From a virus (lineage: Duplodnaviria; Caudoviricetes), in IMG/VR virus record IMGVR_UViG_2884411467_000001, positions 17,098 through 81,097 of that record: a DNA stretch of 64,000 nt; one strand, written 5' to 3'. Numbering within the stretch: position 1 is the stretch's first letter; each line of letters begins with the position of its first letter. Shown here piece by piece: positions 40,606 to 60,300 of the stretch. The position numbers were made by a program, and so were the translations under genes. Below the pieces are notes generated by a model. The model saw nothing but the letters and a program-made list of their open reading frames with translations. It was not told the origin of the DNA and searched no databases.

Positions 40606-40654
40606 CGCGGCACCCGCGCATCACGCGCTGAACGGAGCGCCGCATCCATCCAGC

Positions 40655-43334: not shown

Positions 43335-43345
43335 CGGTGACGCCA

Positions 43346-43449: not shown

Positions 43450-43703
43450 GCGGAGGCGAGCAGAAGTCATTGACGCCAGAATCGCATCGTGATTTCCGCA
43501 CACACCCGCGCCATTACGCGCGCCATAAATTGCCTAAGCAGGTTCCCGTCCGGTGAATAACGGTTCCGGGAACCCGCAACGCCTCGCTGATGCTGGCAAT
43601 GGGTGTCGATGGGCTGTTACCGCCATACTCTTGTAAGGTCCGCTGTCGCCCCGAAGCGGGCATCCAACGCATCAATGCCGCATCCGGTAGTTAGCCAGAC
43701 TAA

Positions 43704-44108: not shown

Positions 44109-44392
44109 TTGCGGACCTCGAAGATCGTTACTACACCCTAGACACCGTTCGTCAGCGCGTAGATAAATTCCCACAGGCATGAAGCCGAAACAGGCACCAG
44201 CTATCAACTTAGGCACTCAATTTCACGACCAGAACCGTGAGCTGGTGATGAAAAATCATACGGCATTAGTGCCTAAGATGAAGCTTGGTTTAGCTCTGAT
44301 TTCTAAATCAATTCATCCTGGCATCGGCACGCACGACTTGGCGTCAAGCGATGTGCTGATGGGTCTTGGCCCTGACGCCGCCAACTTGGCGC

Positions 44393-44689
44393 TCAGGCGG
44401 ACAGCTCGTCGAGCTTCGCGCCGATCTTTTCCGGCAGGTGCCCTTGCCTTTCCAGAATGCGCTCGATGCCCTTCACGTCGGCCGCATCGATCCTCCCACG
44501 ACGCAGCGCGATGCTGGCCTGCAGCTCTCGGTGAGTGCGCTCCTGCTCAATCGTGCGGGTGCCGGCCTTGCTGGCGCCGCCGTCTTTGAGTGCGCTGGCG
44601 CGCGATACCTCACTGGCGAGCTGGTCAAAGGCTCCTGGCGCCTTGCGCGTGATGATGGCCCCGCGCGTCTTGTGTTGTGTTGCTTTCAT
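44393..44689 (-). CDS. Basic hypothetical protein, last gene of the satellite morphogenesis operon
   Basis: Co-directional, 98 aa. Confidence 0.6.
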   Translation of the reverse strand: MKATQHKTRGAIITRKAPGAFDQLASEVSRASALKDGGASKAGTRTIEQERTHRELQASIALRRGRIDAADVKGIERILERQGHLPEKIGAKLDELSA

Positions 44690-44760
44690 CTGATAGTCCT
44701 TTACGGTTTTCGTTTTTGAGTAGATGGGCCGGACCTCCCGACCCATCCCCTGCCCGCGCG

Positions 44761-46260
44761 TCAGCTCAGCGCGGGCGTCGTCATCTGCTCAGCCAGGTAC
44801 GGGCTGTCCACTCCGCCGCCGCGCGTGACGCGCTCGATGAAGCCGGTGCCGCGCTCAAGAGTGAGCGTCGAAAAGACACCCTGGAAAGGCATGAAATCGT
44901 TCTCGACTTTGACGACGTAGTAAGTCGCCACGAACGTGCCGCGATGCAGGCGGACATACATGCCAGCTCGGATGTTCTCGTTACCGCGCACGCGCATGGA
45001 GCCCTGCTCGTACAGGACGTTGTCCTGGTTCATCTGGAGCATGATCTTTCGGCGATTGTTGACCCAGCCAACAATGTCGGTGTCACGCGCGTTCATTGCC
45101 GTTGCCAGATAGCCGCTGCTGTTTGAGATCACCTGGTCGCCGCTCATCTGGGTGTCCGACTGCATCGGGCGAATGCCATAGAGCGACACCAGGTTGTTCG
45201 GGTACGTCGTCTGCAGGACGGTTTCCTTGTCGGCGCCTTCCATTGCCCAGAGCCTACGATTCGACTCGCCGTTGATGTCGCTTTGCGGCGCGTTGCTCCA
45301 GAAATAATTTGCGACGTTGGCCTCCGAACGCGACACGTTGAGGCTGATCACGTCAACGTCGCTGATGTCGACATACTGCGGCGACGGCGCATCCGGCTGG
45401 ATCAGGTCGCCATTGATGTCCATCGCTGGGATCGGCCGGAAAACGCAGTGCACGCCGTCTTCCTCATCCTCGATAAACAGCTCGTTCCAGGTGCCGACGT
45501 CGCAAGAGGCCTTGAGGATGCCGTAGATGGTGGACTCGAAATTCTGCGTGTTCGTGAAGTTGGTTGTGCCGTGAGCGATGTAGAGGTACTGCCCTGCCTC
45601 GATCGTGGCGGGCACTGGCGAGTCGGGCGGCGCAAAGGCCGTGATGAACGGATTGACGATCAAGTCAAAGATCTGCTGCACGAACTGCGCCGCCGGCAGC
45701 ATGCTCAATGCACCGCCGTAGCGCTCGAACAGCTTGAAATTGGTCAGGAGTGACTCGCCCACTGTGAACTGCGGGTTGTACATGACCTGCATCATCTGCC
45801 AGATCTTGCCGTAGTCCTGGCCGGTCACCGTCACGGAGCGCTGCGCCTGCCCGTTCGTGCCCATCGCCTCGGATCGGCTCACGTCCGAGACAAAGCCGCG
45901 CATGATGATCGGAGGCTGCTGGCCGGCGGCCGTGGCCGGGTTGTGCCGGAAGCGGATCTCGATGTAATCCATCGGCTCGATGAGGCCATAGAGCGACTCG
46001 AACGTCTGCTGTCCCGCGTACTCGCCGATGTAGGGGATGTCCGCGAACGTAAGCGCGAAACCGCCGGCCGGGTCGCGCACGGATTTCGACGTGCGCACGG
46101 AGCCTGACTCACCGAAAAATGGGGTGAGGTCGTAGGATCGCTGCGCACCCTGGTACCGCTGCGACGTCGGGTTGCTGCCGTCCAGCGTCGTGCGGGAGAT
46201 GGTCTTGTAGAGCGTGACCTTGAGGTTCGGGTCGTAGATGTTGATGTTGGGGGATGTCAT
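44761..46260 (-). CDS. Baseplate hub-like tail protein
   Basis: 499 aa beta-rich protein directly after the tape measure; RGFVSDVSRS, VTVTGQDYGK and GSMRVRGNENIRAGMYVRL..YYVVKV resemble hub-family motifs. Confidence 0.6.
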   Translation of the reverse strand: MTSPNINIYDPNLKVTLYKTISRTTLDGSNPTSQRYQGAQRSYDLTPFFGESGSVRTSKSVRDPAGGFALTFADIPYIGEYAGQQTFESLYGLIEPMDYIEIRFRHNPATAAGQQPPIIMRGFVSDVSRSEAMGTNGQAQRSVTVTGQDYGKIWQMMQVMYNPQFTVGESLLTNFKLFERYGGALSMLPAAQFVQQIFDLIVNPFITAFAPPDSPVPATIEAGQYLYIAHGTTNFTNTQNFESTIYGILKASCDVGTWNELFIEDEEDGVHCVFRPIPAMDINGDLIQPDAPSPQYVDISDVDVISLNVSRSEANVANYFWSNAPQSDINGESNRRLWAMEGADKETVLQTTYPNNLVSLYGIRPMQSDTQMSGDQVISNSSGYLATAMNARDTDIVGWVNNRRKIMLQMNQDNVLYEQGSMRVRGNENIRAGMYVRLHRGTFVATYYVVKVENDFMPFQGVFSTLTLERGTGFIERVTRGGGVDSPYLAEQMTTPALS

Positions 46261-46261
46261 T

Positions 46262-49072
46262 TCAGGTTCCGTAGGGCTTGGCGGCGGGCGAATTGCCGCT
46301 GATGCTGTATGTGAATGGTGCTGCAGCCGGCTGGCCGTTCGGATGCGTCAGGGTGATGTTGAGGTCGTGCTGGACGTACTGCGTGCCTGATGCGCCGTAT
46401 GCGCCGAGGCCGCCAGGTGCACCGCCGGTGTCCGGCATCGGCGTGCCCTGCAGTGCCTTCGCGTTGCCCTCGTGGTTGTAGATCGCCTGCTCAATCTTCT
46501 GGCGCGTCGCCGCATCAGTCAGGTCGATTCTCTGATTGGCGCCGTATCCCGTCCAGGCGACCAAGTCTCGGATGTAGGCCGCAACATCGTTTCCGTCTTC
46601 CTTGGGCGCCCATCTGTTGGCGACACCGGAGAGCGTGTTGATGCCGTGTTGCGCGTAGTTGGCGAGGTTGGCATCCGCCGCCGCCAGTCCTGCCTGCAAG
46701 CTAGGGAATACCGCGAAACCGCCATTCGATCTGGTTGCGCCCAGTCCCCTTGTGTAAGCGTTGAAGCGGAGGTTGCCGGGGTTGTTGTTCCTGATGCCGA
46801 TCGGATCTCCACTGCGCGGAGCGCCACCGGTGATCGGGTCGAATTTGTTGCCGCCGCTGCCGGGCGATGCTGCACCTGCGCTGTCTTGCAGGTAGGCCGG
46901 CAGTGCTGACGTGCTGCCAGGGGATGCGGCACCAGCACCCTTGGCCTCACCAGAGTCCAGCGCGATGAGTTCCTGCCCGCGCTGCAGCTCAGCCATGCCC
47001 TTCTCGGACTGGTAGTTTGCCGCTGCCTCGCGGATCTTTTTCTCAAGCGCGGGATCAGGTGCGCCCTGCAGGCCCTTGGTCAGGCTCAGGTAGCTGCTGC
47101 GCGCGGCCTCAATGCGCGCGTCCGCGCGGTCATTGATGTCCTTTCGCTGACCCTCCACAAGTGACTTGTGGATCTCCTCGGGCGACATGACGCCGCCGGT
47201 CTTGGTCTTGCCGAACGCCCAGATCATCGTGTCGCGCATGACGTTCAACGCAGGCACGGCCTTGCCGGCGAAGTCCTGCAGTGTCTTGTCGACACCCTGG
47301 ATGGACTCACGGGTCTTGCTGCCTTCGGTGTCGCCCTGGCCGTGCGCGGCGGAAAGCTTCATCAGCTCGTTGCGGTAGCTGTCATCGCCGCCGGCCTGCG
47401 CCTTGTTGAGGCTGTCCTGCTCGGCTGGGCTCAGCTTGCTCCAGAGCTGGCGGCCCACGTCATTGGCCTGGTCACGATCGCCGATCGCAGCCTGCGCGGC
47501 CAACGCGTAAGCCGTTGGATTCAGCTGGCTCGGATCGATGTTGGCCTTCTTCAAACGATCCGAGACATTGCCCATCTGCGCGGGCGTCATGTCATCCAAG
47601 AACGCGGCCTGGTTGTATCCGACGCCGAGCAAGTTGTGCATCGCGTCGAGGCGCAGCTGGGCGCGGTTATCGCCGTCCCCATAGGTGGCTTTCAACTGCT
47701 GCTGGAGCATCCCCCAGTTCGTGCTCGTCGAGCTTGCCGCGCCACCAGGGATGTTTACGCCGTGCCGACGAGCCCATGCGCCCATCACCGACGCGTCGCC
47801 GAACTCCTGCTGCCCGGTACCGAACGCGCCCTGCTCGCGCAGCGCTGCGGCCATGATGGGGTCGAGATTGAGCTTGCGGCCGATGGCCGCATACATGAAG
47901 TTCTGTCCGGCCTCACCAGAGCCACCGTTGATGATCGCGCCGTTCACGCGACCCAGCAGGGCTGCCGAGCCCTGCACGTCCATGCCAGGCACGCCTGCAC
48001 CGACCATGCTGGTCATCATCGCGCCGTAGCCGCCCACATTCGCAGGCGACAATCCCATGCGCGTCTGCTGCGACGCATAGGTGCCGATCGCCTGGATCAC
48101 CTCGTCGGCCTTAGAGAACGCGCCGGACTTGGTGATGACCTCGCCGATCTCGACGCCGAGGCGCTTGATGTCGCGCGTGTCCTTGGTTATGCCCAGGTTG
48201 GTCATCTGAGCAAAGAAATTGCTCGACTGGTTCGGGTCGATGCCGAACGCGCGACCGAAGCCACCACCAGCAGCCACTGATTCCGCGATCGTACTGGCGC
48301 CCTTGCTGCCCGATACGCCGGAGATGTGTGCGTAGTCGAGCGCCATCTTCTGCGCTTCGGTGTAGGTCACGTCAATGGCGTTCGATGCCGCATGCATGCT
48401 GTCTTTCAGAACGCTGAAACTGACGTTCACGTCGCCGAGCGTGCGCTTGAGGGTGTCGTAGCCGATGTCGTCTTGCTGGGCGTCGCCGATCTTGTTTACG
48501 ACGGCGCCGATCGCCTTGCCGACACCAAGCGCGACAATGCCGCCGACCAGGCCAGCCATGCCGGCCATCATTCCGCCGGATGCGCCCGCGCTGATCGCTT
48601 CATCGGCGACTCCACCTGCGGCGCCAGTGGCGCGCAGGCCCGAGCTGACGATGCCGCGACCAGCGCTAGCCCAGGGAGAGCCACCACCGCCACCACCGCC
48701 AGGTGCAGGCGACTGCTCGAACGATGCGCCGGTGCTGCTCAACACCTTGTTGAACGCACCATAGCGCCGTGCTTCACGCGCGACGTGGTTGCTGCCGATG
48801 TTGGACCAGTCGAGATCCAGGAACGATTTGCCGCCCTGCCCCGTGCGATTCAAGTCGGCACCGAGACGGGAGTTGTTCTTGAGTTTCTCGAACTCAGCAT
48901 TCATCCGCTTGATGTCATCAAGGGATGCTTTGTTGATCGGGTTGAACTTGACCTGATTGGCTTTGGCGATGGATGCGCCGAGCGCGTTGATCTTGGCAGT
49001 CAGCTGTTTCAGCTGGCCATCAATGTCGCCAGCGTCTAGCTTGGCCTCGACTGGGATTTCTACGCGACTCAC
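46262..49072 (-). CDS. Tape-measure-like protein with a C-terminal lysozyme-like domain
   Basis: 936 aa Ala/Gly-rich helical protein with a hydrophobic GMAGLVGGIVALG segment; C-terminal GIRNNNPGNL...FAVF...RWAP..DGND..AY domain. Confidence 0.72.
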   Translation of the reverse strand: MSRVEIPVEAKLDAGDIDGQLKQLTAKINALGASIAKANQVKFNPINKASLDDIKRMNAEFEKLKNNSRLGADLNRTGQGGKSFLDLDWSNIGSNHVAREARRYGAFNKVLSSTGASFEQSPAPGGGGGGGSPWASAGRGIVSSGLRATGAAGGVADEAISAGASGGMMAGMAGLVGGIVALGVGKAIGAVVNKIGDAQQDDIGYDTLKRTLGDVNVSFSVLKDSMHAASNAIDVTYTEAQKMALDYAHISGVSGSKGASTIAESVAAGGGFGRAFGIDPNQSSNFFAQMTNLGITKDTRDIKRLGVEIGEVITKSGAFSKADEVIQAIGTYASQQTRMGLSPANVGGYGAMMTSMVGAGVPGMDVQGSAALLGRVNGAIINGGSGEAGQNFMYAAIGRKLNLDPIMAAALREQGAFGTGQQEFGDASVMGAWARRHGVNIPGGAASSTSTNWGMLQQQLKATYGDGDNRAQLRLDAMHNLLGVGYNQAAFLDDMTPAQMGNVSDRLKKANIDPSQLNPTAYALAAQAAIGDRDQANDVGRQLWSKLSPAEQDSLNKAQAGGDDSYRNELMKLSAAHGQGDTEGSKTRESIQGVDKTLQDFAGKAVPALNVMRDTMIWAFGKTKTGGVMSPEEIHKSLVEGQRKDINDRADARIEAARSSYLSLTKGLQGAPDPALEKKIREAAANYQSEKGMAELQRGQELIALDSGEAKGAGAASPGSTSALPAYLQDSAGAASPGSGGNKFDPITGGAPRSGDPIGIRNNNPGNLRFNAYTRGLGATRSNGGFAVFPSLQAGLAAADANLANYAQHGINTLSGVANRWAPKEDGNDVAAYIRDLVAWTGYGANQRIDLTDAATRQKIEQAIYNHEGNAKALQGTPMPDTGGAPGGLGAYGASGTQYVQHDLNITLTHPNGQPAAAPFTYSISGNSPAAKPYGT

Positions 49073-49359
49073 TTCTCACCGCCGGTCGTGTCGATGGCCA
49101 GCAGCGAGTCGCGCACGCGCGCGGGGAGCTTGTTCTGTCGACCCAGGAGGTCCAGGTACGAGGCATGGGCGCCGGTGATGACGCCGGAGGCGGCGCAGAA
49201 CTGCAGGGACTTCGCGAGCTGGTCGCCCTCGTCATCCTGCTCGCGCTTGGCGGAGACCTCCTCACCTGCAGCATGGATCTTTTCATTGGCTGCCTTGGCC
49301 TTACGCCTGCGCGCCTTGTCGAGGTCAGCAACCAGGCGATCAAAATTTGATGGTGTCAC
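49069..49359 (-). CDS. Hypothetical protein directly upstream of the tape measure (chaperone or scaffold-fragment candidate)
   Basis: Overlaps the TMP start; 96 aa, helical. Confidence 0.6.
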   Translation of the reverse strand: MTPSNFDRLVADLDKARRRKAKAANEKIHAAGEEVSAKREQDDEGDQLAKSLQFCAASGVITGAHASYLDLLGRQNKLPARVRDSLLAIDTTGGEK

Positions 49360-49543
49360 GTCAATTCCTTTTGATGATCAGACTTGATTAGGTCGCAGGG
49401 GATGCGGGTGAGTCAGGCCCGCATCCCCCACTTCGGTGACGCCGAGCAGGGCGTCGCCGCGTTGAAGGTTGGCCGCCGGCCCGTTGCGGAGCGCAGGCTG
49501 GCGGCCGGCACGCAGCGTCTTCGCGCCACTGCATGCCATCGCA

Positions 49544-49837
49544 TCAGGACTCGGCCCCACGCCTATCCGTCTGCGAATTCGATGTCGGACGCACTGCCGG
49601 CTTTTTGGTTGGCTCGACGACGGCCATCATCAGGTTCAACACCGCCGCGATGCACGCTGAGTCGCCGCTGGCGGCCTTCTCGACGGCGAGCTGCACGATT
49701 TCATCAGCACGACCAGCGAGCTGCGTCTGGGCGGCTTTACGGAGGTTGTGGTTGATGGTCGACATCAGCAGCGTGCGCTTACGTCCACGGGGGTTGGCGA
49801 CGTAGCCCGGCTTGAATCGGGTGGCGATGTTGGACAT
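49544..49837 (-). CDS. DUF5681-like protein (small-terminase-like)
   Basis: TRFKPGYVANPRGRKR N-terminal motif. Confidence 0.65.
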   Translation of the reverse strand: MSNIATRFKPGYVANPRGRKRTLLMSTINHNLRKAAQTQLAGRADEIVQLAVEKAASGDSACIAAVLNLMMAVVEPTKKPAVRPTSNSQTDRRGAES

Positions 49838-49842
49838 GAGGG

Positions 49843-50691
49843 TCAGCCACCGTAGGTGCGCTGCTGCGCTGGCATTTGGCCATGCTGCAGCCCATGGCGC
49901 AGTGCCGGGCTCGGGCGCCACAGCATGTGCAGGCTCTTGCCAACTGCGCGGCCGGCGACCTCGGTCTCGTACAGCGCCTTCTCCAGCGCACCGGTTAGCA
50001 GGGCAACGTGATCGGCCAGGAGCGTGGCGCGGGCTTCGACAAGCGCGCGGTCGAGAGCCTGCCGGGCATCGGAGACGGCGCGAGCGCCGAGGGTGGGGGT
50101 CAGGCCTTCGGCGGTGGCGCGCACCTGGGTCAGCATGTTCTGCAGGTCGCTGATGTCGGTGGCCAACGCATAGAGGCGTGCTTCCTGCGCCTCGCTCGTC
50201 TTGCCGCTGCGTCGATCGGCAACGATCATTTCGTGCCGGGTCCGTGCTTCGGCTAGCTTGCGCTCGACGTCGGCAACTTCGCGCGTCGCGTTGCCGTGCA
50301 ACTGCGCGGCTTCGGCGTGGCGGCTCTCGGCGAGTGCCAGGTTGGCGGCGGCCTGCTCGATGGCGATGGCGTGCGTCGGGTGCAGGTGCGCCGTGTCGAG
50401 GTTCGGGGCGGAAGCGGCGGCCAGGTGACCAATGGATGCCTCGATGCCTGCGACGGCGTCAGCAGCGGCGGTGCGGCCGGCAGCGTGGGCGTTGACGTGG
50501 ATCTCGGCCTGCTCCTGGGCAGCCTGAGCGCTGGCGGCGGAGCGTGCGGCCTGCAGACGTTCGGCGACCTCGGCCAGTTTGCGGCGCGTTTCCAGCGTCG
50601 GTTTGCCGTGCTTGAGGCTCTCGGCGATCTCGGCCTGGAGTGCGGTGTGTTCCGCTTCCAGGCTCTGTAGTGTTTCGTGATGGTCGGACAT
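49843..50691 (-). CDS. Ala-rich coiled-coil protein
   Basis: 282 aa with extended heptads; GAGG RBS. Confidence 0.7.
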   Translation of the reverse strand: MSDHHETLQSLEAEHTALQAEIAESLKHGKPTLETRRKLAEVAERLQAARSAASAQAAQEQAEIHVNAHAAGRTAAADAVAGIEASIGHLAAASAPNLDTAHLHPTHAIAIEQAAANLALAESRHAEAAQLHGNATREVADVERKLAEARTRHEMIVADRRSGKTSEAQEARLYALATDISDLQNMLTQVRATAEGLTPTLGARAVSDARQALDRALVEARATLLADHVALLTGALEKALYETEVAGRAVGKSLHMLWRPSPALRHGLQHGQMPAQQRTYGG

Positions 50692-51121
50692 GAGGTTCTC
50701 TCGTCGGTGGGCAGCCAGTCCGCCCATGACTAAATGTTCGTGTCACGACCAAATCCTTTCCTGCTGCGTCCAGCTAGATCACCATCTCCTTTGGTTATTG
50801 GTCTTGATCAAATTCGAGTATTGACTTTCCGCAAACGCATACGCGGCGCTGTCACGACCGGATACCAGATACCAGCCGTCAACGACCAGCTAAGAGACCA
50901 AATCCTTAGATCAATTCCGCCGGTCGTCGTGCATGCGCATGCGCGTACCTAGTGCGCGTACCTGACCCCGAGTCAGGGAACAAGCGAGCACCAGCGCGCC
51001 TCCCAGCCACCCCACGCAAAATTGGCGCACGAAGGGCGCACCAGCGCGCAAAACAAAGGCCGCATGAGCGGCCCTTGTCGGCGATGTCTCGTCCGTGAGG
51101 TGGTGTGGGTCCAGTATCGCG

Positions 51122-51475
51122 TCACGCCGGCTCGGCACTGAGGCCCATCAGGCTACTGCGGATGCCGCGCCGGATGATCTCCTGCCGGTGGCGGGCGATT
51201 GCCCGCACGACCTCGTCATCAAGATGATCAACGCGCCGCCGCGCCATAGCGACCTGGTCGAGCTTGGCAACGCTCTCCGGCTCGCGGCCAAGCTGGCGCA
51301 GCTTGCGGTACAGCTCGCCCGCCGAGGCCTCGGTGGTGGCGACCAGTAATGCCCGACCCTCGCCGCGCAACGTGCGCACGTCGGCCACGATGCGTTCGAG
51401 TTGCGCGCAGGCCAGCCTGCAGCTCAGGGCTTGCTCAGTGTCATCCTTGACCTTGATCTCAGCATCCATGCTCAT
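51122..51475 (-). CDS. Hypothetical satellite protein
   Basis: Part of a chain of overlapping minus-strand ORFs. Confidence 0.55.
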   Translation of the reverse strand: MSMDAEIKVKDDTEQALSCRLACAQLERIVADVRTLRGEGRALLVATTEASAGELYRKLRQLGREPESVAKLDQVAMARRRVDHLDDEVVRAIARHRQEIIRRGIRSSLMGLSAEPA

Positions 51476-51716
51476 ATTCCTTCGAGTGCGGGGCCGGTGC
51501 CGACAAGCGCGCGAGTTCGTCTATGAGGGCCTGCGCCTGTACCTCCAGGGCGCGCACGGACATGTTCCGCCACTCACCCTCCGGCAGCGCCTGCGCGGCC
51601 TCCAGCCGTCCGGCCAGGTGCGCTGCCTGGCGTCTGCCGAAGGCAGCAATACCTACGCGCGACAGCTCCAACCTGGAGGCCTCCGCCTCGATCCGTTCGA
51701 GCAGCCCGTGCTTCAT
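51459..51716 (-). CDS. Hypothetical satellite protein
   Basis: Coupled ORF. Confidence 0.55.
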   Translation of the reverse strand: MKHGLLERIEAEASRLELSRVGIAAFGRRQAAHLAGRLEAAQALPEGEWRNMSVRALEVQAQALIDELARLSAPAPHSKEYEHGC

Positions 51717-52066
51717 GCGGATTGCCCTCGTCCATGGGGCACCTCGGTGCTGGTGCTGGTACCGAACTCATCACCCAAGCGCGCCGCACGGCGCGAGGCG
51801 CGCTCGACGTATTCGAGCAGATCCTCAATCGCTGCACGTTCTTTGCCGGTCGCGTGCAGCTTGAGCACGCCACGTTTGAACTCAGCAACGGCAGCGTCAA
51901 TGCGCTCGATGATGTGCCGGGGCTCGGGATCGGCGCGGAGGCCGGTGACCCTCTCCAGCCCGGTGATCAGCTCGCCAAGCGACGCGACCGGATCGAACAC
52001 GGGTTTCTTGCTCCGCCTCATGACTGCCTCCTTGGCTGCACATAGTTCGGTCCCTTGCGGCCCCAC
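51713..52066 (-). CDS. Hypothetical satellite protein
   Basis: Coupled ORF; probable start at MRRSKK. Confidence 0.55.
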   Translation of the reverse strand: MGPQGTELCAAKEAVMRRSKKPVFDPVASLGELITGLERVTGLRADPEPRHIIERIDAAVAEFKRGVLKLHATGKERAAIEDLLEYVERASRRAARLGDEFGTSTSTEVPHGRGQSA

Positions 52067-52278
52067 TCGTTGAGACCGTACTCGGCAAAAATCTGGGTCA
52101 TCGTCTTTTCGCCACTGGCGATTTGCGACTTTTCAAACTCGAACTGCTCGCTGCTGATGATGCGATCGCCGCGAACACAGGAAAAGTCAGGCTCGCACTC
52201 CGGCCACACGTATTTCGGCCGTGGCGGCAGCGGAGGTGCATCCAGGTCGTCAGCGTCGTCGTACGCAATCGTGTTCAT
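52018..52278 (-). CDS. Hypothetical satellite protein
   Basis: ATGA coupling. Confidence 0.55.
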   Translation of the reverse strand: MNTIAYDDADDLDAPPLPPRPKYVWPECEPDFSCVRGDRIISSEQFEFEKSQIASGEKTMTQIFAEYGLNEWGRKGPNYVQPRRQS

Positions 52279-53132
52279 CGGTCGGAACCTTCCATGGCGG
52301 GTTGGGGTGTGGATTCGTCTGCGGGCTTCGGCATCATGTCGCCGCCCAAGAATTCGCGCTCAGCGTGGCGCCGTGAGATGACACCGAGAACGGCATTGCG
52401 GACGCGGTTCGCGATCACGCGCTGCGCTTCGTCGCGTGTCTTGCCGAGGGCTCGATTGATCTCACGAAGCATCTCGGCCTCCCAGTGCGCAACCCTCTCG
52501 GCGCCGTACTGTGTGGACTCACGATCTGCGGCCAGCTTCAACGCCGCCGTGCGCGCGCTGATCGACTGGCGCAGGACCATCGGGTTTCGCACGCGCTCGA
52601 CGCCGGTGGTCGGATCAACGTGCACCGACTGCCGAGTCAGCAGGTCGCATTGCTTGAGGAGGCCGCCGATCTGGGAGAGCCAGTTGATGACGCCGGGCGC
52701 CGAGTTGTCGGTCTGCTCATCGGATGCCATGCCAGCGGGCGCATAGACGGAGGGCGGGATCGACGAAGCCGGCAGGCCTGCCTCACGCAGTCGCTGAGCC
52801 TCGTTCCATTCTCCGCGTACTTGTTTGACGTGACGGGACCAGCTCGACGCCGGCACGTCCTGGAACTTCAAGCGCGCGATCTTGGCGCCCGTGACCTCAC
52901 CGTGCGCGTCGATCTGGGTGCGCAGTTCGGAAAGGATGTCAACGGTGGTGTGCTTCGGATGATTACTCACGGTTGGAATTTCTTCTGGCGTTAAAGCAAA
53001 TATGCCGTCACGACTTCCAAAGTGATCACGCAGAAACAGGGTTTGACAGTTGCACGCTGGCAAGACTTGCCGGCATTCGCGCATTTTCTTGAAACAGCCT
53101 TTGGCTTGACGGAAAACGCACATTTCCAGCAC
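52275..53132 (-). CDS. Hypothetical satellite protein (true start probably near 52970)
   Basis: Coherent C-terminal ~230 aa. Confidence 0.6.
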   Translation of the reverse strand: MLEMCVFRQAKGCFKKMRECRQVLPACNCQTLFLRDHFGSRDGIFALTPEEIPTVSNHPKHTTVDILSELRTQIDAHGEVTGAKIARLKFQDVPASSWSRHVKQVRGEWNEAQRLREAGLPASSIPPSVYAPAGMASDEQTDNSAPGVINWLSQIGGLLKQCDLLTRQSVHVDPTTGVERVRNPMVLRQSISARTAALKLAADRESTQYGAERVAHWEAEMLREINRALGKTRDEAQRVIANRVRNAVLGVISRRHAEREFLGGDMMPKPADESTPQPAMEGSDR

Positions 53133-53390
53133 ACGCCGATGGCGGGCATCTCACCACCACCCCCTCGCCGCCGTCATGTCCGCCTCGTCGACATGCGCCT
53201 GCCCTCGTGTCGACTCCTGCCCATCCATTCGACATGTCGAGCATCACCACCCAGGCCACCAGCGGACACCGTCGTGGATGGTGGCTGCGACGGGGTTGGT
53301 GTTCGTCCACGAGGTCAGCTCGTAGTGACGGTGGCGCCTGGCTCCATCTACGTGGTCCGTCTGCGCTTCTCTTCCCGGTTCCAGCAACAG

Positions 53391-53743
53391 GGTGGCAGGG
53401 GTGGCAGCCTGCCACCCTTACTGCCACCCTGAAAAGCAGGACTCAAAGCCGTATAACTAACTAATTCTATTGACGAAAATTAGATTAATTATATAGAGGG
53501 TGGCAAAAGTGGCAGTAAAGAGAGGTATACGAGGAGGAGAGGTATGGGAGTGTTGTAGGGGTGCTATGTATGTGGATTGGTACACCTCCCTGATGCCCGT
53601 GCTTTGTATCTTGGGGTAATAGGTGTGCGGAGCTGCCACCCTGCCACCCTAGTGCCAATTTCTGGAATTATCGCAATAAATACAATACCTTGTGCCGGGT
53701 GGCAGCCTGGTGGCAGGCCTGGTGGCAGGTTGGCACTGCCACC
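53391..53743. repeat. Putative satellite replication origin: GGTGGCA/TGCCACC iterons around an AT-rich core
   Basis: 11 exact heptamers (53391, 53400, 53410, 53422, 53499, 53634, 53642, 53698, 53709, 53721, 53737); AT-rich stretch at about 53452-53496; non-coding. Confidence 0.8.
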
Positions 53744-53809
53744 CTCCATGCCCAATTGCGTGGTCGGTGGCGCCACCTGAGAGACGCGTGGGCAGGACGC
53801 CACCGCGCC

Positions 53810-54943
53810 TCACCACATCGGCCCGCCGGCCACCGTCGCTAGTGATGAGTTGCGCCCATGAAAAAGCCGGCGCATGGCCGGCTCGGTTTCAGTGGTGATG
53901 GTGGGCGATGCCGCCGTCTGTGCCGGCGCCATCGATGCCACCAGCCTTGCTCTCACCTTCCGCAGTGCGGTCACCATCGCATCACGCGGCGCACTACGAT
54001 CGTAACCCCTGATGAGGATCTCCACGGCCTGGCCGATCGCCTGGAGCTGCGCCGCCCGGTCGTGAATCGGCCCGGCCGCCGCCGAATACACCTCGGCATG
54101 ATCTGGGTGTTCCGCTGCAAACCACCTACCAAGCTCGGCGCGGATGTCCTGCAGCGCCCAGGTGATCATGCTGGTGGGGCTGGACGCGATCAGTGCATTG
54201 AGGGTCGACGCGAGCGCCAAGTGCTGTTCCATCGGCAAGATCTGCGCAGGGCTCGGCGCATCAGCCCTCATCAGCGTCCGTCCCTTTGGCGTCGTCACAG
54301 AGCCGGCAACCGATCTCCCACTCCACACGAGCGGCCCGGCCGCATCGATCCGGCCGATAGCTGCAGCCAACACCGCAGCTGTGGCCTCATCGCTGCACAT
54401 GAGGTGCGGCAGGGCGACCGCACGCGGCCCCCACGCATTGACCCAGTCTGGCGGCAGGTACGCGATGCCGTTTCGCCTGCACCAGGTGGCGCGCGCGCCC
54501 GACGACGGCTCAGCTGAAGTAATGGCCGCCACCCATGCGCCGCTGTCGACATGCGCCCAGGCCGCCGCGATGACGCGGTTGTGGCCAGGCGTACCGTCGA
54601 GCGCCGTGTATGCGCGATCGATCTCCACCTCCGTCGCCGGCCGCATACCGGTATGCGCAAGAAAGCGAAGCATCCGCGCCGCACCTAGGACGCGATCACG
54701 TGCCGCAGCCTTGCCCTCCCCGACATCACGCAGCTCAATGCACCCTGTCGTTTCATCCATGAGCGCACCGCGCATGATGCCGGTCGTCTGCACCTGGTGG
54801 ATGTTGATCATCTGCGCCAGCGGCATCGGCATCCCGACCTCCAGCACCTCGCGCCTGAACGCGCCTTGCCAGTACCACCGCGCGGAGATCTGCGCGGTGT
54901 GCCTGGTGCTGGACATGTCTTTCATCGATGTCTGGTTGCTCAT
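53810..54943 (-). CDS. Hypothetical protein coupled to the primase
   Basis: 377 aa, ATGA overlap with the primase stop. Confidence 0.65.
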   Translation of the reverse strand: MSNQTSMKDMSSTRHTAQISARWYWQGAFRREVLEVGMPMPLAQMINIHQVQTTGIMRGALMDETTGCIELRDVGEGKAAARDRVLGAARMLRFLAHTGMRPATEVEIDRAYTALDGTPGHNRVIAAAWAHVDSGAWVAAITSAEPSSGARATWCRRNGIAYLPPDWVNAWGPRAVALPHLMCSDEATAAVLAAAIGRIDAAGPLVWSGRSVAGSVTTPKGRTLMRADAPSPAQILPMEQHLALASTLNALIASSPTSMITWALQDIRAELGRWFAAEHPDHAEVYSAAAGPIHDRAAQLQAIGQAVEILIRGYDRSAPRDAMVTALRKVRARLVASMAPAQTAASPTITTETEPAMRRLFHGRNSSLATVAGGPMW

Positions 54944-57825
54944 GGGAAAATCTCGCTCTCGCTCGCAATGCTGCGTGCGCCGAAGCCGATCATGCTGAGC
55001 GGCAACCTGGTCACGTACTGGGGCTGGCCGCTGAACTTCAACCTGTTAGCCCTCGTCCCTTTCTCGGCGCCGGGCAGTCGCTCGAACGCGGCGCCAGGAT
55101 CGGTCGCGAACGGCGTGCTGTTGAGAAGCCTTTTGATGGCGCTGGACGAGTTCCATAGGGCGAACTTGTTTCCATCCAGCGCTATGCCGCGCTGGCGCAG
55201 CTCCGTGCGCGCCTGCCGTGCATCGAGGCTGCGTCCCTCGACCTCCTCGTTCAAGGCGAAAGAGATCAAGTTGTGCACGGTGTGGCTGGTTCCGAGAACC
55301 GTGACGAACGCCCCCATCAACTCCTGGAGTGCGTTCTGCGAGTCGTCAGCTTCGGTGGCTTCTACGTGCTCGGACCAGTCAAAGGAATCCAGCCAGGCAC
55401 GCGCATCGTCTTCGCTTGCCACCCCCGAGTTCTGCATCGACCATGCGCCACCCATCATGGCGCCGTACTGGTCGCCGTCGCGCTGGTTGCCAAACTTGTC
55501 CGCAGCAGCGCGGGTGAACGTGTCGACGTTCGCCAGGATGGTCGGCATGTTGTCGATCACGCGACGCAGCATGCGCCCGCGCAGGTCGGTGTCGCGCTCC
55601 AGCCAGTGGAGTTCCTTACTCGTCTGCTCCCATTGCGTGACCGCCTCCGGCACGCCGCGTGAGGTCTTGAGCGTGAGCAATGCCATGCGGTCTACGTCGG
55701 CCTTCCTGAGCGTGCCGACATAGATCGAGGCCAGGCAGAACATGGATCGCACGTGGAACGCCATGCCGCCGCCGGAAATGGTGCCCTTGAGCGTCTTGGC
55801 GTCGGATGAGCTGGATGATTGCCTGATCAACGACATCATGTTCTCGACGCGCTGCGTCTCCCGCTCGTCGTTACGTTCGGCCTCATCGAGCAGAACAGGA
55901 ACGCTCGTGGAACCAAGGGCCTGGCGCACGCCGGACTCGGTCGAGTTGCCCTGGGCATACTGGCACGCGTGCTCGCCAAGTAGCGGGTAGATGTACTTCT
56001 GCATGATCGTCGACTTGCCGTTGCCCGCCGGGCCAGTCAACCAGACATGCGGACGCCACCGGAGCGCACCGCAGATGGGCGACAGGAACGTCCAGCCAGC
56101 CAGCAGGGCCGCCGATGAGTCGCGCTGCCAGCGGAACATCTTAGCGATGTCGAACAACTTGCGTCCCTCCGCATCGGTGAGAGCCGAATCGGATGGCGGA
56201 GGCAGCGGCAACGTCATCTCGTACACGTATCGACTACGGATCTTGGTCACATCGGTCGGGACGCCGTCGACGGACAGGTGATCACCGTGATGGAACACGT
56301 GACGGCCCGTGTCGATCCAGGCTCCGCCGGCACGCACGCGCGCACGGTCGTAGATGCCGCGACGGTGCGCGGTTTGGATGATGAAGTTGATCGCCATGTC
56401 GACATTGATACCTCCCTTTGGGCCAGCGAAGTGCGTTTCCCACCACTGGAGATCGCAGATCTCGATCAGGCAGGCTTTCGAGAACGAGCCGCGCGTGTAT
56501 TCCATGATCTGCCGCTTGGAATGCACGAAAACAAAGTACGCCCCGTGGTCGTAGCCAAGGATCTCGAACCCCATCTCCCTCTCTAAAACACGGGCAGCTT
56601 CGTCGGCAGCGTCAGCCATAGTGGTCTGCTTAGCCTTCGCTGGCTGCTGCGTCGGCACATCATCGTCGCCGCCCTGCTCGCCCGTGTGCGCGTCCTGATC
56701 GGCGCTGTACTCCTCGTGCACCGGCTCGGCCTCATGCTCCGGCGGGTATAACGCGCAGTTGATCCAGGCCTCGACCGCGCCCGCGCCTTCGCGCTCGTGC
56801 AGGTCGTTGAAGTCGCCGCCCTTTGGCAGGCCGTCGACGTCCTGGAACTCAGGGATCGCCACCACGCCGCCCACGGCAGCAGCCGCCTTGCGCGCGTAGG
56901 TGACGCCTGGGTTATTGACCGGCGTGACGGTACCCCAGTCGTTATCTGCCGCAAACACGATGATCGCGTCCGCGTACTTTGCGCGGATGACCTTGGATGC
57001 GTGCAGCAGATTGCCGGTGTCGAATGCCACCAGCACACAATGGCCAGTGCACTCATGGACGGTGGCTGCCGTAGCGTAGCCCTCCGCCACGATGAACACT
57101 TTACGGCCATCGATCTCCTGGGGCTTGCCGATGACGTGAAACACGCCCTGGCGCTCACCGCTGCTCAAATATGTCTTGTCACGCTCGTCGTCGTGAATCT
57201 TGACTTTGGTCGGAAAGATGGCCTGCAGCGAACTGATGTCGGACTTGACGAGGCCATGCATCGGAACGAGGAGCGCGTTCTCGCACACCACGTATGGCTT
57301 GCCCTCCTCTGCATCCCATCCCCACCACTTCCCCACGCGCAGGCCGTGCGCCTTGATGCCCTTCTTCTGCAGGTACGGATGATCATCGGTCGCCTGCGCT
57401 GCTCGGTCCCAGATCTTCCGCGCGCGCTCGGCGGCATTGGCCTGGGCTTCCTTCATCGCAGCAGTTCGGTCGGCCTGCTTGCGCTTGATCTCGGCGCGAT
57501 GGCGATCCCACTCCTCTTGGCTCATCGGCGCCACGCCGGCACCGGAAGACCATGTGCATTTCTCGCCGGTATTCCAGATGCCGAACGATGCGGACGGGTG
57601 ATCGTCCATGAAGACTTTCAGGTAGCCGTTACGCTTGCCGCCCTTGCTCTTGGCCGTCTTGAAGCGCTGCCACCCGAGATGATGGATGTCTATGTCACCT
57701 GGCTCGGCGATGATGCCGATCGCACGCATGGCCGCGCTGATTTCCGCAGCGACGTCATGATGGTTTAGCACGTTCGTGCGGTTGTTTTTGATTGATCCGT
57801 TCGTTGAACTTGTCGATCCTGACAT
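54940..57825 (-). CDS. TOPRIM primase fused to an SF3-like helicase (satellite Rep)
   Basis: HPYLQKKGI, VAEGYATA, AADND and GDFNDL (TOPRIM); GPAGNGKS (Walker A) and LLDEAE (Walker B). Confidence 0.92.
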   Translation of the reverse strand: MSGSTSSTNGSIKNNRTNVLNHHDVAAEISAAMRAIGIIAEPGDIDIHHLGWQRFKTAKSKGGKRNGYLKVFMDDHPSASFGIWNTGEKCTWSSGAGVAPMSQEEWDRHRAEIKRKQADRTAAMKEAQANAAERARKIWDRAAQATDDHPYLQKKGIKAHGLRVGKWWGWDAEEGKPYVVCENALLVPMHGLVKSDISSLQAIFPTKVKIHDDERDKTYLSSGERQGVFHVIGKPQEIDGRKVFIVAEGYATAATVHECTGHCVLVAFDTGNLLHASKVIRAKYADAIIVFAADNDWGTVTPVNNPGVTYARKAAAAVGGVVAIPEFQDVDGLPKGGDFNDLHEREGAGAVEAWINCALYPPEHEAEPVHEEYSADQDAHTGEQGGDDDVPTQQPAKAKQTTMADAADEAARVLEREMGFEILGYDHGAYFVFVHSKRQIMEYTRGSFSKACLIEICDLQWWETHFAGPKGGINVDMAINFIIQTAHRRGIYDRARVRAGGAWIDTGRHVFHHGDHLSVDGVPTDVTKIRSRYVYEMTLPLPPPSDSALTDAEGRKLFDIAKMFRWQRDSSAALLAGWTFLSPICGALRWRPHVWLTGPAGNGKSTIMQKYIYPLLGEHACQYAQGNSTESGVRQALGSTSVPVLLDEAERNDERETQRVENMMSLIRQSSSSSDAKTLKGTISGGGMAFHVRSMFCLASIYVGTLRKADVDRMALLTLKTSRGVPEAVTQWEQTSKELHWLERDTDLRGRMLRRVIDNMPTILANVDTFTRAAADKFGNQRDGDQYGAMMGGAWSMQNSGVASEDDARAWLDSFDWSEHVEATEADDSQNALQELMGAFVTVLGTSHTVHNLISFALNEEVEGRSLDARQARTELRQRGIALDGNKFALWNSSSAIKRLLNSTPFATDPGAAFERLPGAEKGTRANRLKFSGQPQYVTRLPLSMIGFGARSIASESEIFP

Positions 57826-58052
57826 GTAAAATCATTTCCACAACGTTCCGCGTCACCCGAACCTCGCTGGCTGCAACCAGTGGGGTTTTTACTTTTGAGG
57901 CTCGGGCATTTTTTCTCTCGGCGGCCAAAGCGACCGGCGAGCGATCCACGCGAAGGGATCGCCCTTGAGTTTCGTGTCACGACTTTATTCGCGCGCGCAA
58001 AAAGAGCCGGGCGATGCCCAGCTCTCTTTCGTGGATTCGGTTTCGATACCTA

Positions 58053-58265
58053 TTACACGGAGGTGGCCGCACCCATAGCAGCCACCTTCATGGCTGCGCG
58101 GCGCCTGGCCTGTCGCTCGCGATTGGCAGCCCGCTTTCGCTCAGCCTGATCGGGTGTAAGGTTTTCAACGCGATGACGCGCCCGGTACCCATCATCGCGA
58201 TGGTATCGGGCTCGCTGCCACTCGCGCTGGTACTCGTTGTGTCGGGCTCGCTGCTCTGCAGTCAT
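58053..58265 (-). CDS. Small Arg-rich helical protein
   Basis: 70 aa; weak support. Confidence 0.4.
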   Translation of the reverse strand: MTAEQRARHNEYQREWQRARYHRDDGYRARHRVENLTPDQAERKRAANRERQARRRAAMKVAAMGAATSV

Positions 58266-58537
58266 GTCGTGAACTCCACGGGGTCTCAGGATCTGCGCCG
58301 GCCGCCATCAACCGTCCAGGTCCGTCAATTACCTTCAAAGACCGGCGCTATAGGCCAATGCTGGCGTCACGACACATCCCGGTGCATCGGATACGGCGGT
58401 GGTACTGGTGGCGCCACCTTGATCACTGCTCAAGTTGAAGCCTGTCACGACCGTTGGCACTACGTCGGCAGGCTTGATCCATATTCAAGGCTAGCCTCTG
58501 CCCGCGCAGTGCTGTCGCCGCCCACTAGCCCCAGAAA

Positions 58538-58563
58538 CGAAAAGTCCGCACAAGGCGGGCTTC
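58538..58563 (-). terminator. Terminator after the AlpA cluster
   Basis: AGAAGCCCGC-CTTGT-GCGGACTTTTC on the minus strand. Confidence 0.6.
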
Positions 58564-58587
58564 TCGTCGGCGAGGTTTGCGGCCAGC

Positions 58588-58998
58588 TCAGTGCACGGAG
58601 CCGCCGGCCATGTTCTCCATGATGGTGCGCCGATCGCGGAAGGCGATGACCTCCTCACGAATGAACACCGCCGCCTCGCCTCCGATGTAGATGGGGCGCG
58701 GACACAAGGGGTCGAAACGCGGCATTGGGCGCAGTGTCATTTGCACGACATGCGCGATGTCAGTGCCGAGTATTTCCGCAGCCTCCGCCGCGCCGATCAG
58801 CTTGCGCGATTCTAGTTTGGATGCATCACCCAGGGACTGGCACCACGCCGCGTAGTCCTCCACGAGGTAGCCGCTGATGACCTCGCCCTCGGGGCCGGTG
58901 CTCTCGACAGGTCGCGGGAAGCCAGGGATGTCGCGCAGCGCGTCGGTACTGCAGCACAAGATGTTCGCGAGCTGCTGGGCGGTGAATACCTGGCTCAT
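58588..58998 (-). CDS. Protein with two AlpA-like domains in tandem
   Basis: FTAQQLANIL..GFPRPV and IGAAEAAEILG..PRPIYIGG..VFIREEV. Confidence 0.65.
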   Translation of the reverse strand: MSQVFTAQQLANILCCSTDALRDIPGFPRPVESTGPEGEVISGYLVEDYAAWCQSLGDASKLESRKLIGAAEAAEILGTDIAHVVQMTLRPMPRFDPLCPRPIYIGGEAAVFIREEVIAFRDRRTIMENMAGGSVH

Positions 58999-59249
58999 GC
59001 AGTCACCTGAGCGCCGGTGGTCTGCTCGCGCCGCCACGCCAACATGCGCTCGCCCAATATATGCGCTTCCGATTCATCCAGGGAATCGAACAGCAGCCGA
59101 AGCAGATCATTCGCGTTCGGATAGTGCCGCACAATGGCGTACTCCGGGGCGCACATTGCGTTGAACTGCGCCATTAGCGAATTCAGTTCCTTGATGCGCT
59201 CGTTCATGCGCCAGATAAGGTCCAGCTTGGTGTCGGGTGTCGCGCTCAT
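58995..59249 (-). CDS. Hypothetical satellite protein
   Basis: ATGA-coupled. Confidence 0.55.
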   Translation of the reverse strand: MSATPDTKLDLIWRMNERIKELNSLMAQFNAMCAPEYAIVRHYPNANDLLRLLFDSLDESEAHILGERMLAWRREQTTGAQVTA

Positions 59250-59488
59250 GCGGGAACTCCCTGGGCGCTGGTGCGCTCGGCCAGCCACTGGTCGACAGAT
59301 GCGGTGCTGTAGATCACGAAACGCTTGCCCAACTGGGTGGGCTTCGGGAAGTTGAGGGTCTCATCGGCCTGCCAGGCGTACAGGGTGCTGGCGCTGATGC
59401 CCAGGCGCTGGACAAGGTCGGCGATGCGCTCGAAGCCCTCAGGCGCCCGGCGCCTCGGCTTCTGCTCGGCTGTGACTTGCGTGTTCAT
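59246..59488 (-). CDS. alpA: AlpA family regulator
   Basis: RIADLVQRLGISASTLYAW...FPKPTQLGKR...VDQWL. Confidence 0.9.
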   Translation of the reverse strand: MNTQVTAEQKPRRRAPEGFERIADLVQRLGISASTLYAWQADETLNFPKPTQLGKRFVIYSTASVDQWLAERTSAQGVPA

Positions 59489-59869
59489 CTTGGTTCCACG
59501 GTGGTTAGCAATTCCGAGATGGTGCTGTCACGACTTTCTGTCTCAAAGCCTGACGTCATCCATCGACGTGCGGTAATGCCCGTGGTTCTGAATTTTATGC
59601 CACGAAAAGCCCCCTGCAAGAGGCGCCATATCGATGGATGAACTCTCCAATGGGGGATTGGCGCGACTGCGTTAAGACGTCCATCTTCTGCTCCCTGATT
59701 ACCTATCAGGTGACACCCGCCGCCCTCGCCGCGACGGGACTAGGTTTTCGCGGCGGGACTCGCCGCCGGGCCCATATAGGGCGCAGTGCGACGAAGCGGC
59801 CCCGGCGAATTGCTGCGAGAGAGAGTCGTGACATAACCATCGATAACCAGTCATTCACTGGTATTCCCC

Positions 59870-60121
59870 ATGATCAACCCAAATTCACCCAATCCCGTGC
59901 CCCGCGAGCGCACGTTGATTCGCATCAACGACGTGGCAAGCTTGCTGGGTGTGACGCCCAGCTCTGTCCGCGACTATCTGGCGCGCATCCCAGAATTCCC
60001 AGAGCCGTTGCGGATCGGCGCATCACTTTTCTGGATCAAGCAGAGCATCGAGGAATACATCGATAGCCTGGAGCGGGCAGCGGCTGAGCGTTCTGCTAAG
60101 CGCAGGGCGAGCGCAGCTTAA
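59870..60121 (+). CDS. alpA: AlpA family regulator/excisionase, divergent
   Basis: IRINDVASLLGVTPSSV...FPEPLRIG..FWIKQSIEEYI. Confidence 0.85.
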   Translation: MINPNSPNPVPRERTLIRINDVASLLGVTPSSVRDYLARIPEFPEPLRIGASLFWIKQSIEEYIDSLERAAAERSAKRRASAA

Positions 60122-60279: not shown

Positions 60280-60300
60280 GACTCCCGCCACCTCCACCAA
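60280..60300 (+). repeat. att site (second copy of the ssrA 3' end)
   Basis: GACTCCCGCCACCTCCACCAA, identical to 31136-31156. Confidence 0.9.

Follow-up and report, generated by a model that had tools for sequence, protein, structure and literature searches.

A tape measure and baseplate hub gene pair in an ssrA-integrated element, a candidate satellite of PHB04-like phages

The ssrA-integrated element and its tail genes

A 64,000-nucleotide stretch of viral DNA (bases 17098-81097 of the 81-kb IMG/VR record IMGVR_UViG_2884411467_000001; hereafter, the window) was analyzed together with the upstream 17 kb of the record (L007, record bases 1-17200), and the analysis centered on an integrated element that carries genes for a tape measure protein (TMP) and a baseplate central hub. 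A perfect direct repeat of 21 bp, GACTCCCGCCACCTCCACCAA, marks both ends of this element. The repeat is present at 31136-31156 and 60280-60300, with two copies only in the 81-kb record, and corresponds to the T-arm/acceptor/CCA end of transfer-messenger RNA (tmRNA; partial match to Rfam RF00023, E = 5e-9). Because the two repeats delimit it, the element measures 29.2 kb (31136-60300). No tRNA or tmRNA gene was called by ARAGORN in the window or the upstream 17 kb, and no complete ssrA was found in the record. A P4-type integrase with the three expected domains (Table 1) lies just inside the left attachment site (attL), its 5' end facing that site, an arrangement which we take to be that of CP4-57 and P4-type islands. 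Thus, the att-bounded element and the P4-type integrase of the original prediction were both recovered. Its interval of 44393-60121 covers the conserved core but not the whole element, and its estimate of about 18 kb for core plus integrase leaves out ∼11 kb of cargo inside the att sites.

The core is encoded on the minus strand, where AlpA, small open reading frames (ORFs), a primase-helicase, a 377-aa protein, an iteron-like stretch, a 285-aa protein with further small ORFs, and a spacer precede a tail cassette. The cassette is composed of a coiled-coil protein, a DUF5681 protein, a 96-aa ORF, the TMP, the hub, and a small ORF, and the order of this run, from the coiled-coil protein to the 499-aa hub, was as first described. 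The TMP ORF is intact (936 aa, no stops), and its homologs sit between the tail assembly chaperones (TAC) and the hub in 45 phage-type tail loci (8 from genomes and 37 from IMG/VR), which are ordered sheath, tube, TAC, TAC, TMP, hub, and baseplate. Because homologs hold that position in complete contractile-tail operons, sequence comparison identifies the 936-aa protein as a tape measure. An RNNNPGN domain (GIRNNNPGN...; TMP residues ∼755-871) matched the N terminus of Gp29 (PDB 9vvp; E = 2e-18) and an endolysin (7q47; E = 1e-6), and in TMP relatives a glucosaminidase, SLT, or tail-lysozyme domain occupies its place. An intact TMP with a lysozyme-like domain had been foreseen correctly, but the domain does not form the very tip of the protein, as ∼65 residues follow it.

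The 499-aa hub gene, also intact, starts directly past the TMP gene, as originally reported. Its AlphaFold2 (AF2) model (30-sequence alignment) reached a predicted local distance difference test score (pLDDT) of 82 and a predicted template modeling score (pTM) of 0.84, and the fold check that had been proposed, a Foldseek search against PDB, returned 63 matches at E ≤ 0.001. The matches listed include phi812 baseplate chain E (E = 2e-18), Mu gp44 (E = 1.6e-11), T4 gp27 (E = 2e-9), VgrG, the pyocin R2 hub, and PVC/AFP spikes. On the basis of this model, the 499-aa protein is predicted to be a baseplate central hub of the gp27/Mu gp44/VgrG fold, and the labels "TMP-like" and "hub-like" were both correct.

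No other ORF between the att sites matched a virion family in Pfam, PHROGs, or NCBIfam, and Atlas look-ups with the 377-aa and the 285-aa protein yielded nothing usable or capsid-like; the statement that no further recognizable virion gene lies between these sites therefore held. In particular, capsid, portal, protease, terminase, and connector genes were not found there. The 294-aa coiled-coil protein had no detectable family in the same three databases. A "terS-like" role had been suggested for the DUF5681 protein; in tests of low power, it showed no tblastn match in the phages, no PDB sequence match, and a three-helix AF2 bundle (pLDDT 66) with no Foldseek match, while PF18932 occurred in none of five helper-type genomes and no listed cluster name mentions terminase. 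The assignment as a small terminase was thus not retained. Likewise, a tail chaperone role for the 96-aa ORF found no support: in BLASTP and hhalign comparisons with 8 first-chaperone and 7 second-chaperone ORFs from phage loci, neither this ORF nor the ORFs preceding TMP in seven elements gave a match, and the 96-aa ORF is left unassigned.

The remaining predictions for the core concerned integration and replication. AlpA was recovered, with HTH_17 genes besides, as was the primase-helicase (Toprim_3, DUF5906, and phrog_35358). The motif GGTGGCAG occurs 14 times in the window versus 3.7 expected, with 10 of the 14 copies inside a noncoding stretch of ∼360 bp (at 53391-53743), and none of 100 shuffles reached 14. 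The repeat cluster that had been described therefore stands, and it is plausibly an iteron origin. Considering these features together, the element is most likely an ssrA-inserted integrative phage satellite from a family that has not been described before.

Homologs in PHB04-like phages and related elements

Full-length, adjacent homologs of TMP and hub were found in the same order in a group of myoviruses of ∼86-95 kb (∼90 kb), which includes Bordetella phage vB_BbrM_PHB04, Pseudomonas phages Dolphis, Jeremy, and Touem01, Aeromonas phage ST4, Yersinia phage fHe-Yen8-01, Escherichia phage ECML-606-1, and Morganella phage Mecenats66. Identity to PHB04 was 44% for TMP (gp008) and 52% for the hub (gp007), and identity to a metagenomic phage (L004) was 60% and 76%, respectively. 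In these phages, sheath, tube, and two small overlapping ORFs (chaperones) lie upstream of the TMP homolog (PHB04 gp008 and Dolphis gp21), and the hub homolog is followed by a 289-aa protein, tube initiator, sheath initiator, Baseplate_J, and fibers. When the element's ORFs of at least 50 aa were compared by tblastn with PHB04 and a complete 90-kb IMG/VR relative, only the primase, TMP, hub, and a 69-aa ORF matched, the first three being the full-length genes common to the element and this group. The primase was closest to those of the same phages (41-42% identity over 97% of its length; PHB04, ST4, and Touem01). The search for helper candidates with homologous tail genes, as originally proposed, thus pointed to one group, and we infer that the helper would be a PHB04-like (Phabquatrovirus-type) myovirus of ∼90 kb. 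The prophage adjoining the element was rejected as a helper, its 626-aa TMP and two hub proteins showing no detectable similarity to the element's TMP or hub.

All 37 IMG/VR loci with this TMP were of the phage type. PHB04 gp113 is annotated as an integrase-family protein (L068:15772-17085), and phage-type tail loci were also observed inside two long bacterial contigs, one from Geminicoccus (L017, 255 kb) and one from Pseudomonas (L025, 167 kb). On these grounds, a strictly lytic lifestyle may not hold for all helper-type phages; at least some may be temperate or remain in cells.

The closest relative of the window element is a sister element on metagenome contigs L011/L012, in which the coiled-coil protein, DUF5681 protein, small ORF, TMP, hub, and small ORF are followed by resolvase, SRAP, a 362-aa protein, HTH_17, and integrase. 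Its cargo differs in part; where the cargo region is shared, it is syntenic at 97-100% identity. More distant members have the order primase, resolvase, a coiled-coil protein of ∼255 aa, a short DUF5681 protein, one to three small ORFs, TMP, a protein of ∼180 aa, integrase, and chromosomal genes. Such element loci were detected in Ralstonia pseudosolanacearum (L003), two Bradyrhizobium species (sp. USDA 4469, L010; sp. Leo170, L016), Cupriavidus (L018), Paraburkholderia diazotrophica (L021, with TMP and hub), Burkholderia multivorans (L065), and Achromobacter insolitus (L066), and two further metagenome contigs also carry one. All relatives are from Burkholderiales, Rhizobiales, or metagenomes, and at 90% identity, the short DUF5681 marker falls into ∼70 clusters, most of them from Burkholderiales. 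The integrase is P4 type (Arm-DNA-bind_3) in B. multivorans and A. insolitus; in Ralstonia and Cupriavidus, only the catalytic Phage_integrase domain was recorded. The 10-kb flanks of the element-type loci were all devoid of sheath, tube, and capsid genes, and the PHB04-type sheath was absent from three of three whole genomes of element carriers. A full head or tail operon in relatives had been named as a sign of a deleted prophage; none was seen in the relatives that share the backbone of the element, such operons being confined to a different genome type, the ∼90-kb PHB04-like phages. Because the gene order recurs in the sister element and in more distant members, the window element represents a kind of element and not a relic.

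The tail genes carried by these elements vary. TMP and hub occur together in the window element, L011, and P. diazotrophica, while most members carry TMP alone, and Bradyrhizobium sp. USDA 4469 carries TMP with a homolog of a 153-aa phage baseplate-region protein. The search for the same two-gene module in other elements was therefore successful in two cases only, and in the family TMP is a core gene and the hub an optional extra. In the USDA 4469 element, the homolog is a 142-aa protein past the TMP (L010:12754-13182) with 61% identity to the phage baseplate/fiber-region protein (phrog_5417), and just beyond it lies a gene pair encoding AAA_15 and UvrD-helicase proteins, which we take to be a possible Gabija-type defense system. 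A further island, in Paraburkholderia sacchari (L015; CP158827.1, ∼956-978 kb), has AlpA, a hub with 51% identity to the window hub, a tube initiator (PF23980), and then primase, with no TMP, and thus represents a different "tail-core kit" on a related backbone.

In a phylogeny of 18 TMPs of known context (branch cutoff, Shimodaira-Hasegawa approximate likelihood ratio test [SH-aLRT] of ≥95), element and phage proteins interleave with at least five supported switches, the same number as with shuffled labels. Partners on the tree are often matched by host, with the Paraburkholderia element grouping with a Paraburkholderia phage, and the window and L011 proteins lie beside metagenomic phage L004. 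Because the hub tree places the window element in the same way, TMP and hub were probably acquired together. The nearest TMP to that of PHB04 (L001) on the tree was from the Bradyrhizobium sp. Leo170 element, with end branches of 0.13 and 0.07, a likeness that, judged from the sequences, indicates a strikingly recent exchange across bacterial classes.

Compared with the sister element, the ratio of nonsynonymous to synonymous substitution rates (dN/dS) was 0.14 for the hub and 0.33 for TMP, although part of this divergence may predate capture and stem from phages. By this measure, both intact genes are under purifying selection, rather than the relaxed selection that had been named as a warning sign. 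The small ORF past the hub is also conserved between the sisters (97% identity; dN/dS of 0.23). Nucleotide identity between the two elements falls from 100% in the resolvase to 82-94% in the hub and small ORF and 50-85% in TMP, the drop being abrupt at the TMP/hub junction; this stepwise pattern, lowest in TMP, points to TMP as the part under conflict. The first 60 TMP residues show 90% identity to phage L004 versus 83% to the sister element.

These data bear on the explanation that TMP and hub are leftovers of a shrunken PHB04-like prophage, or passive island cargo, and have no function now. In its favor, the best phage matches of the primase, TMP, hub, and 69-aa DNA-binding protein all fall in one phage group, and the integrase-family gene of PHB04 and the tail loci in the long contigs L017 and L025 indicate that integrated forms may exist. 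However, both genes are intact and under purifying selection, the compact layout is conserved in at least six genera despite different cargo, the DUF5681 marker is found in the ∼70 clusters mentioned above, and repeated host-matched TMP exchange ill fits neutral decay. We therefore regard functionless remnants as quite improbable.

Possible roles of the tail genes

The view up to 2025-26 was that satellites take over capsids and complete tails, and the PLEs (elements that resemble phage-inducible chromosomal islands) of Vibrio cholerae then showed a swap of the satellite's own tail core, so far the only proven case. PLE11, PLE1, and PLE4 encode TMP, chaperone, and baseplate hub (Mathur, Boyd et al., Nature 2026, PMC12987554); the TMP in PLE11 virions is that of the PLE, with the TMP and hub of ICP1 excluded, and deletion of the PLE tmp gene reduced transduction by 96-99.9% (PMC12987554). 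By analogy with these systems, we consider it rather probable that the element described here is a satellite that places its own tail core into helper-built tails. Both integration (P4-type integrase and AlpA) and replication (primase-helicase and iteron-like cluster) functions are its own, and no head, portal, terminase, tube, or sheath gene was found in it. Upon infection by, or induction of, a PHB04-like phage, the element would excise and replicate, and the separate cassette (coiled-coil, DUF5681, 96-aa ORF, TMP, hub, and small ORF) would then be expressed. The element's TMP and hub trimers would nucleate tails, with the tube initiator, wedges, tube, and sheath recruited from the helper, giving tails of helper length with a satellite-specified core that serves as cell-wall opener and DNA channel. 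These tails would join helper capsids filled with satellite DNA, so that the helper would supply heads, tube, sheath, wedges, and fibers and the element the tail core; the conserved coiled-coil and DUF5681 proteins are candidates for redirecting capsids or packaging. Possible benefits include escape from anti-TMP defense, interference with the helper, and adaptation of DNA delivery via the variable lysin domain. Altered host range and poisoning of the helper, also proposed originally, would be further possible effects. Altered tail length, another of the effects originally suggested, is unlikely, because element TMPs (900-962 aa) and phage TMPs (921-1066 aa) overlap in length, and it was rejected as the point of a satellite TMP.

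Several observations weigh against this proposal. The 81-kb record lacks a helper phage, and the tail proteins of the neighboring prophage are unrelated to those of the element. No tail chaperone or small terminase was recognized in the element, and no pac or cos site was recognized, cos sites not having been searched for. The element measures 29 kb compared with ∼90 kb for the helper capsid, and it has no known size-redirection gene. None of the 37 IMG/VR contigs with the TMP is element type, which may be an effect of how virus detection chooses contigs. Since most members have no hub gene, hub substitution is not a family trait. Finally, excision, packaging, and particle formation are steps predicted from gene content.

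The main rival explanation is that TMP and hub act as dominant-negative decoys, whose coassembly with tail parts of the incoming phage would give dead tails and protect the host population with no need for packaging. Satellites and prophages are known to block the assembly of tails, as in Tai systems (PMC11364771) and Rta of PLE11 (PMC12987554); the element carries other defense-type cargo (AbiTii and a Schlafen-type protein), and the position of TMP as the fastest-diverging gene between the sisters fits an arms race. Nevertheless, a decoy needs neither a full-length TMP with phage length, a 90%-identical N terminus, and an intact lysin domain nor a hub under purifying selection as strong as that measured, and the family layout of integrase, AlpA, and primase is that of mobilizable satellites. 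Decoys as the sole function are therefore unlikely. Interference and chimeric tails coexist in PLE, so the two explanations overlap, and interference could accompany a satellite-specified tail core here, as in PLE11.

A further explanation, which takes TMP and hub as alternative tail parts of the adjoining prophage and the element as an accessory arm of that prophage, would agree with the IMG/VR call of the whole 81 kb as one provirus and with the junction of prophage and element at the same ssrA-derived site. It is hardly credible, considering that the prophage has its own TMP and two hubs of other families, that the element is equipped with a separate att pair and integrase, and that L011/L012 and all other family members occur without this prophage.

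If its genes do build a tail core, the element works like a PLE but, because recombinase and replication genes differ, is not one. Both lack capsid, tube, and sheath genes, both encode adjacent TMP and hub, the helper is (here, likely) a large myovirus, and TMP is a fast-evolving conflict point in both. In contrast, the backbones are unrelated: a P4-type tyrosine integrase at ssrA, AlpA, and a helper-like primase-helicase in high-GC Proteobacteria are found here, whereas PLEs have a large serine recombinase, RepA, and a Vibrio/ICP1 context, so that the element is set apart by gene types and hosts. TMP and hub are also closer to the helper type (60%/76% to L004 and 44%/52% to PHB04, versus 20%/41% between PLE and ICP1), the TMP keeps its length, neither a chaperone nor an Rta-like gene was recognized, and the tail role is a predicted one.

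Like the element, P4-like and CP4-57-type ssrA islands have an integrase of this family, an AlpA-type regulator, and a large primase-helicase, insert at the 3' end of a small-RNA gene, and carry defense cargo in hotspots. However, P4 has no tail gene, no ORF of the element matched the Sid, Psu, or Delta families in Pfam, PHROGs, or NCBIfam (a cos site was not searched for), and the primase is of the PHB04-phage type (phrog_35358) and was not assigned to P4 alpha. Phage-inducible chromosomal islands (PICIs) and their capsid-forming type (cf-PICIs) resemble the element in size class, in their int, alpA, and pri layout, and in relying on a helper for most virion parts, but terS, Rpp, and capsid-redirection genes were not recognizable in the element, and the capsid, portal, terminase, and head-tail connector genes of cf-PICIs are absent. 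Some cf-PICIs have putative tmp genes, which were found only in PLE-like elements and cf-PICIs in Extended Data Fig. 10 of PMC12987554. Satellites with a TMP have also been reported as EPIPs of Mycolicibacterium (bioRxiv 2025, PMC12822802), but these have terS, adaptor, stopper, scaffold, and capsid-type genes and a serine integrase, use a siphovirus helper, and make longer tails. The PHB04-like phages themselves share TMP, hub, and primase-helicase as full-length homologs, with TMP and hub adjacent in the same order, but they are complete, with head, sheath, tube, chaperones, baseplate, fibers, and lysis genes, none of which, apart from TMP and hub, was recognized in the element. No description of TMP-bearing islands with this backbone was found in the literature searched. 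The element is less novel than originally supposed, as replacement of TMP, chaperone, and hub has already been shown for PLEs in ICP1 tails (PMC12987554).

A wider proposal, for and against which we see the case as evenly balanced, is that the element belongs to a large undescribed family of P4-integrase/primase satellites of Burkholderiales, Rhizobiales, and relatives, in which a helper-matched TMP is the defining virion gene and tail-core kits (TMP alone, TMP and hub, hub and tube initiator, or TMP and baseplate-region protein) are interchangeable. If this were true, tail-core replacement would be a convergent satellite strategy rather than a PLE curiosity, TMP would be the main point of satellite-helper conflict, and a second, unrelated, and taxonomically wide lineage would make such substitution a general principle. 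The hosts include plant pathogens (Ralstonia), opportunists (B. multivorans and Achromobacter), and soil symbionts, and culturable pairs would become available, e.g., Bordetella or Pseudomonas PHB04-like phages with related islands. An explanation would also be offered for "orphan" TMP genes mislabeled by annotation pipelines and provirus callers.

Cargo, regulatory features, and neighboring elements

Table 1. Features of the element and of the adjoining mobile elements (window coordinates unless indicated)
Feature	Position	Strand	Remarks
Prophage major head protein, sheath, 626-aa TMP, two hub proteins, baseplate, fiber	upstream 17 kb (L007)		
Prophage portal	2489-4144		
Prophage large terminase	4432-6561		
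Prophage CI-type repressor	16320-17084		
Prophage lambda-type integrase	29946-31112		
attL, 21-bp repeat, tmRNA 3' end	31136..31156	+	longer ssrA 3' fragment just upstream
P4-type tyrosine integrase, 420 aa	31358..32620	+	PF13356 (Arm-DNA-bind_3), PF22022 (Phage_int_M), PF00589 (Phage_integrase)
Cargo/accessory region, ∼11 kb	32795..44216		between cassette and integrase
AbiTii	32795-33688		beside integrase
HNH protein	33841-34863		cargo
HTH_17 gene	35866-36357		cargo region; profile match
69-aa ORF	37340-37549	+	43% identity to PHB04 gp109 "DNA-binding protein"
362-aa protein			cargo, between 69-aa ORF and SRAP
SRAP	39619-40605		cargo
Schlafen/AlbA_2-HATPase_c_4 protein	40655-42076	-	best PADLOC match, pAgo model, E = 9e-23
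Resolvase	42678-43352		cargo
Response-regulator receiver	43704-44216		cargo
Small ORF past hub	44393..44746	-	117 aa listed, more likely ∼98 aa from ATG at 44689
Baseplate central hub (predicted), 499 aa	44761..46260	-	intact; starts 1 nt past TMP stop
TMP with C-terminal peptidoglycan-hydrolase domain, 936 aa	46262..49072	-	phrog_669, E = 2e-77
96-aa ORF	49069..49359	-	overlaps TMP start by 4 nt, translationally coupled; chaperone position
DUF5681 protein	49544-49921 as listed	-	E = 2e-7; true start probably 49837 (∼97 aa); family core gene
Coiled-coil protein, 294 aa	49843..50727	-	first gene of cassette; family core gene, ∼253-294 aa elsewhere
Noncoding spacer upstream of cassette, ∼390 bp	50728..51121	-	terminator-like hairpin, then repeated GGTCGTGACAG motifs
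Small-ORF run and 285-aa family-conserved protein	51122..53132	-	some HTH-like Atlas neighbors of 285-aa protein
Iteron-like cluster, 10 copies of GGTGGCAG	53386..53750	both orientations	candidate replication origin
377-aa protein (no assigned family) and primase-helicase	53810..57825	-	
Primase-helicase, 961 aa	54940-57825	-	Toprim_3, DUF5906; phrog_35358, E = 9e-224
Regulatory end: small ORFs, AlpA, HTH_17	58053..60121	both	
AlpA	59246-59488	-	E = 6e-9
HTH_17 gene	59870-60121	+	profile match
attR, second copy of 21-bp repeat	60280..60300	+	
Third island, DUF6538-type tyrosine integrase	60380-61867		profile match
Third island, DUF3800 protein	61886-63001		

Within the cargo, the Schlafen/AlbA_2-HATPase_c_4 gene is present in the window element but not in the sister element and is thus probably swappable defense cargo. 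Considering its similarity to a PHB04 protein, the 69-aa ORF may be a regulator with helper cross talk.

In the spacer upstream of the cassette, two copies of GGTCGTGACAG (50740-50900) were observed with a variant, GCTGGTCGTTGAC, nearby, and a conserved AGTCAAYACTC...TTGATCA stretch lies between the motif copies. The GGTCGTGACAG copies are kept in the sister element (L011:3860-3995), where the remaining spacer has diverged, suggesting from sequence conservation that they may form an operator or activator site. LexA boxes of the forms CTGT-N8-ACAG and GTTC-N7-GTTC were absent upstream of the cassette.

The 81-kb record, which IMG/VR called a single "provirus" rated 100% complete, was found to be composed of three separate elements. 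The first (window 1-31112 and L007) is a complete temperate myovirus with a Mu-like tail, which also carries a GH108 lysin, a reverse transcriptase (22819-24171), and a C5 methylase, and it abuts the satellite element at the same ssrA-derived site. The third is a low-GC island (GC content, ∼51-54%) that starts at 60380 directly past attR, the record ending before its far end, and its placement suggests a tandem array of mobile elements at a single ssrA site. Near the left end of the record, a weak tRNA-like match (L007:560-631; Rfam tRNA-Sec, 30.8 bits, under the gathering score), at which ARAGORN made no call, may represent an attachment-site fragment.

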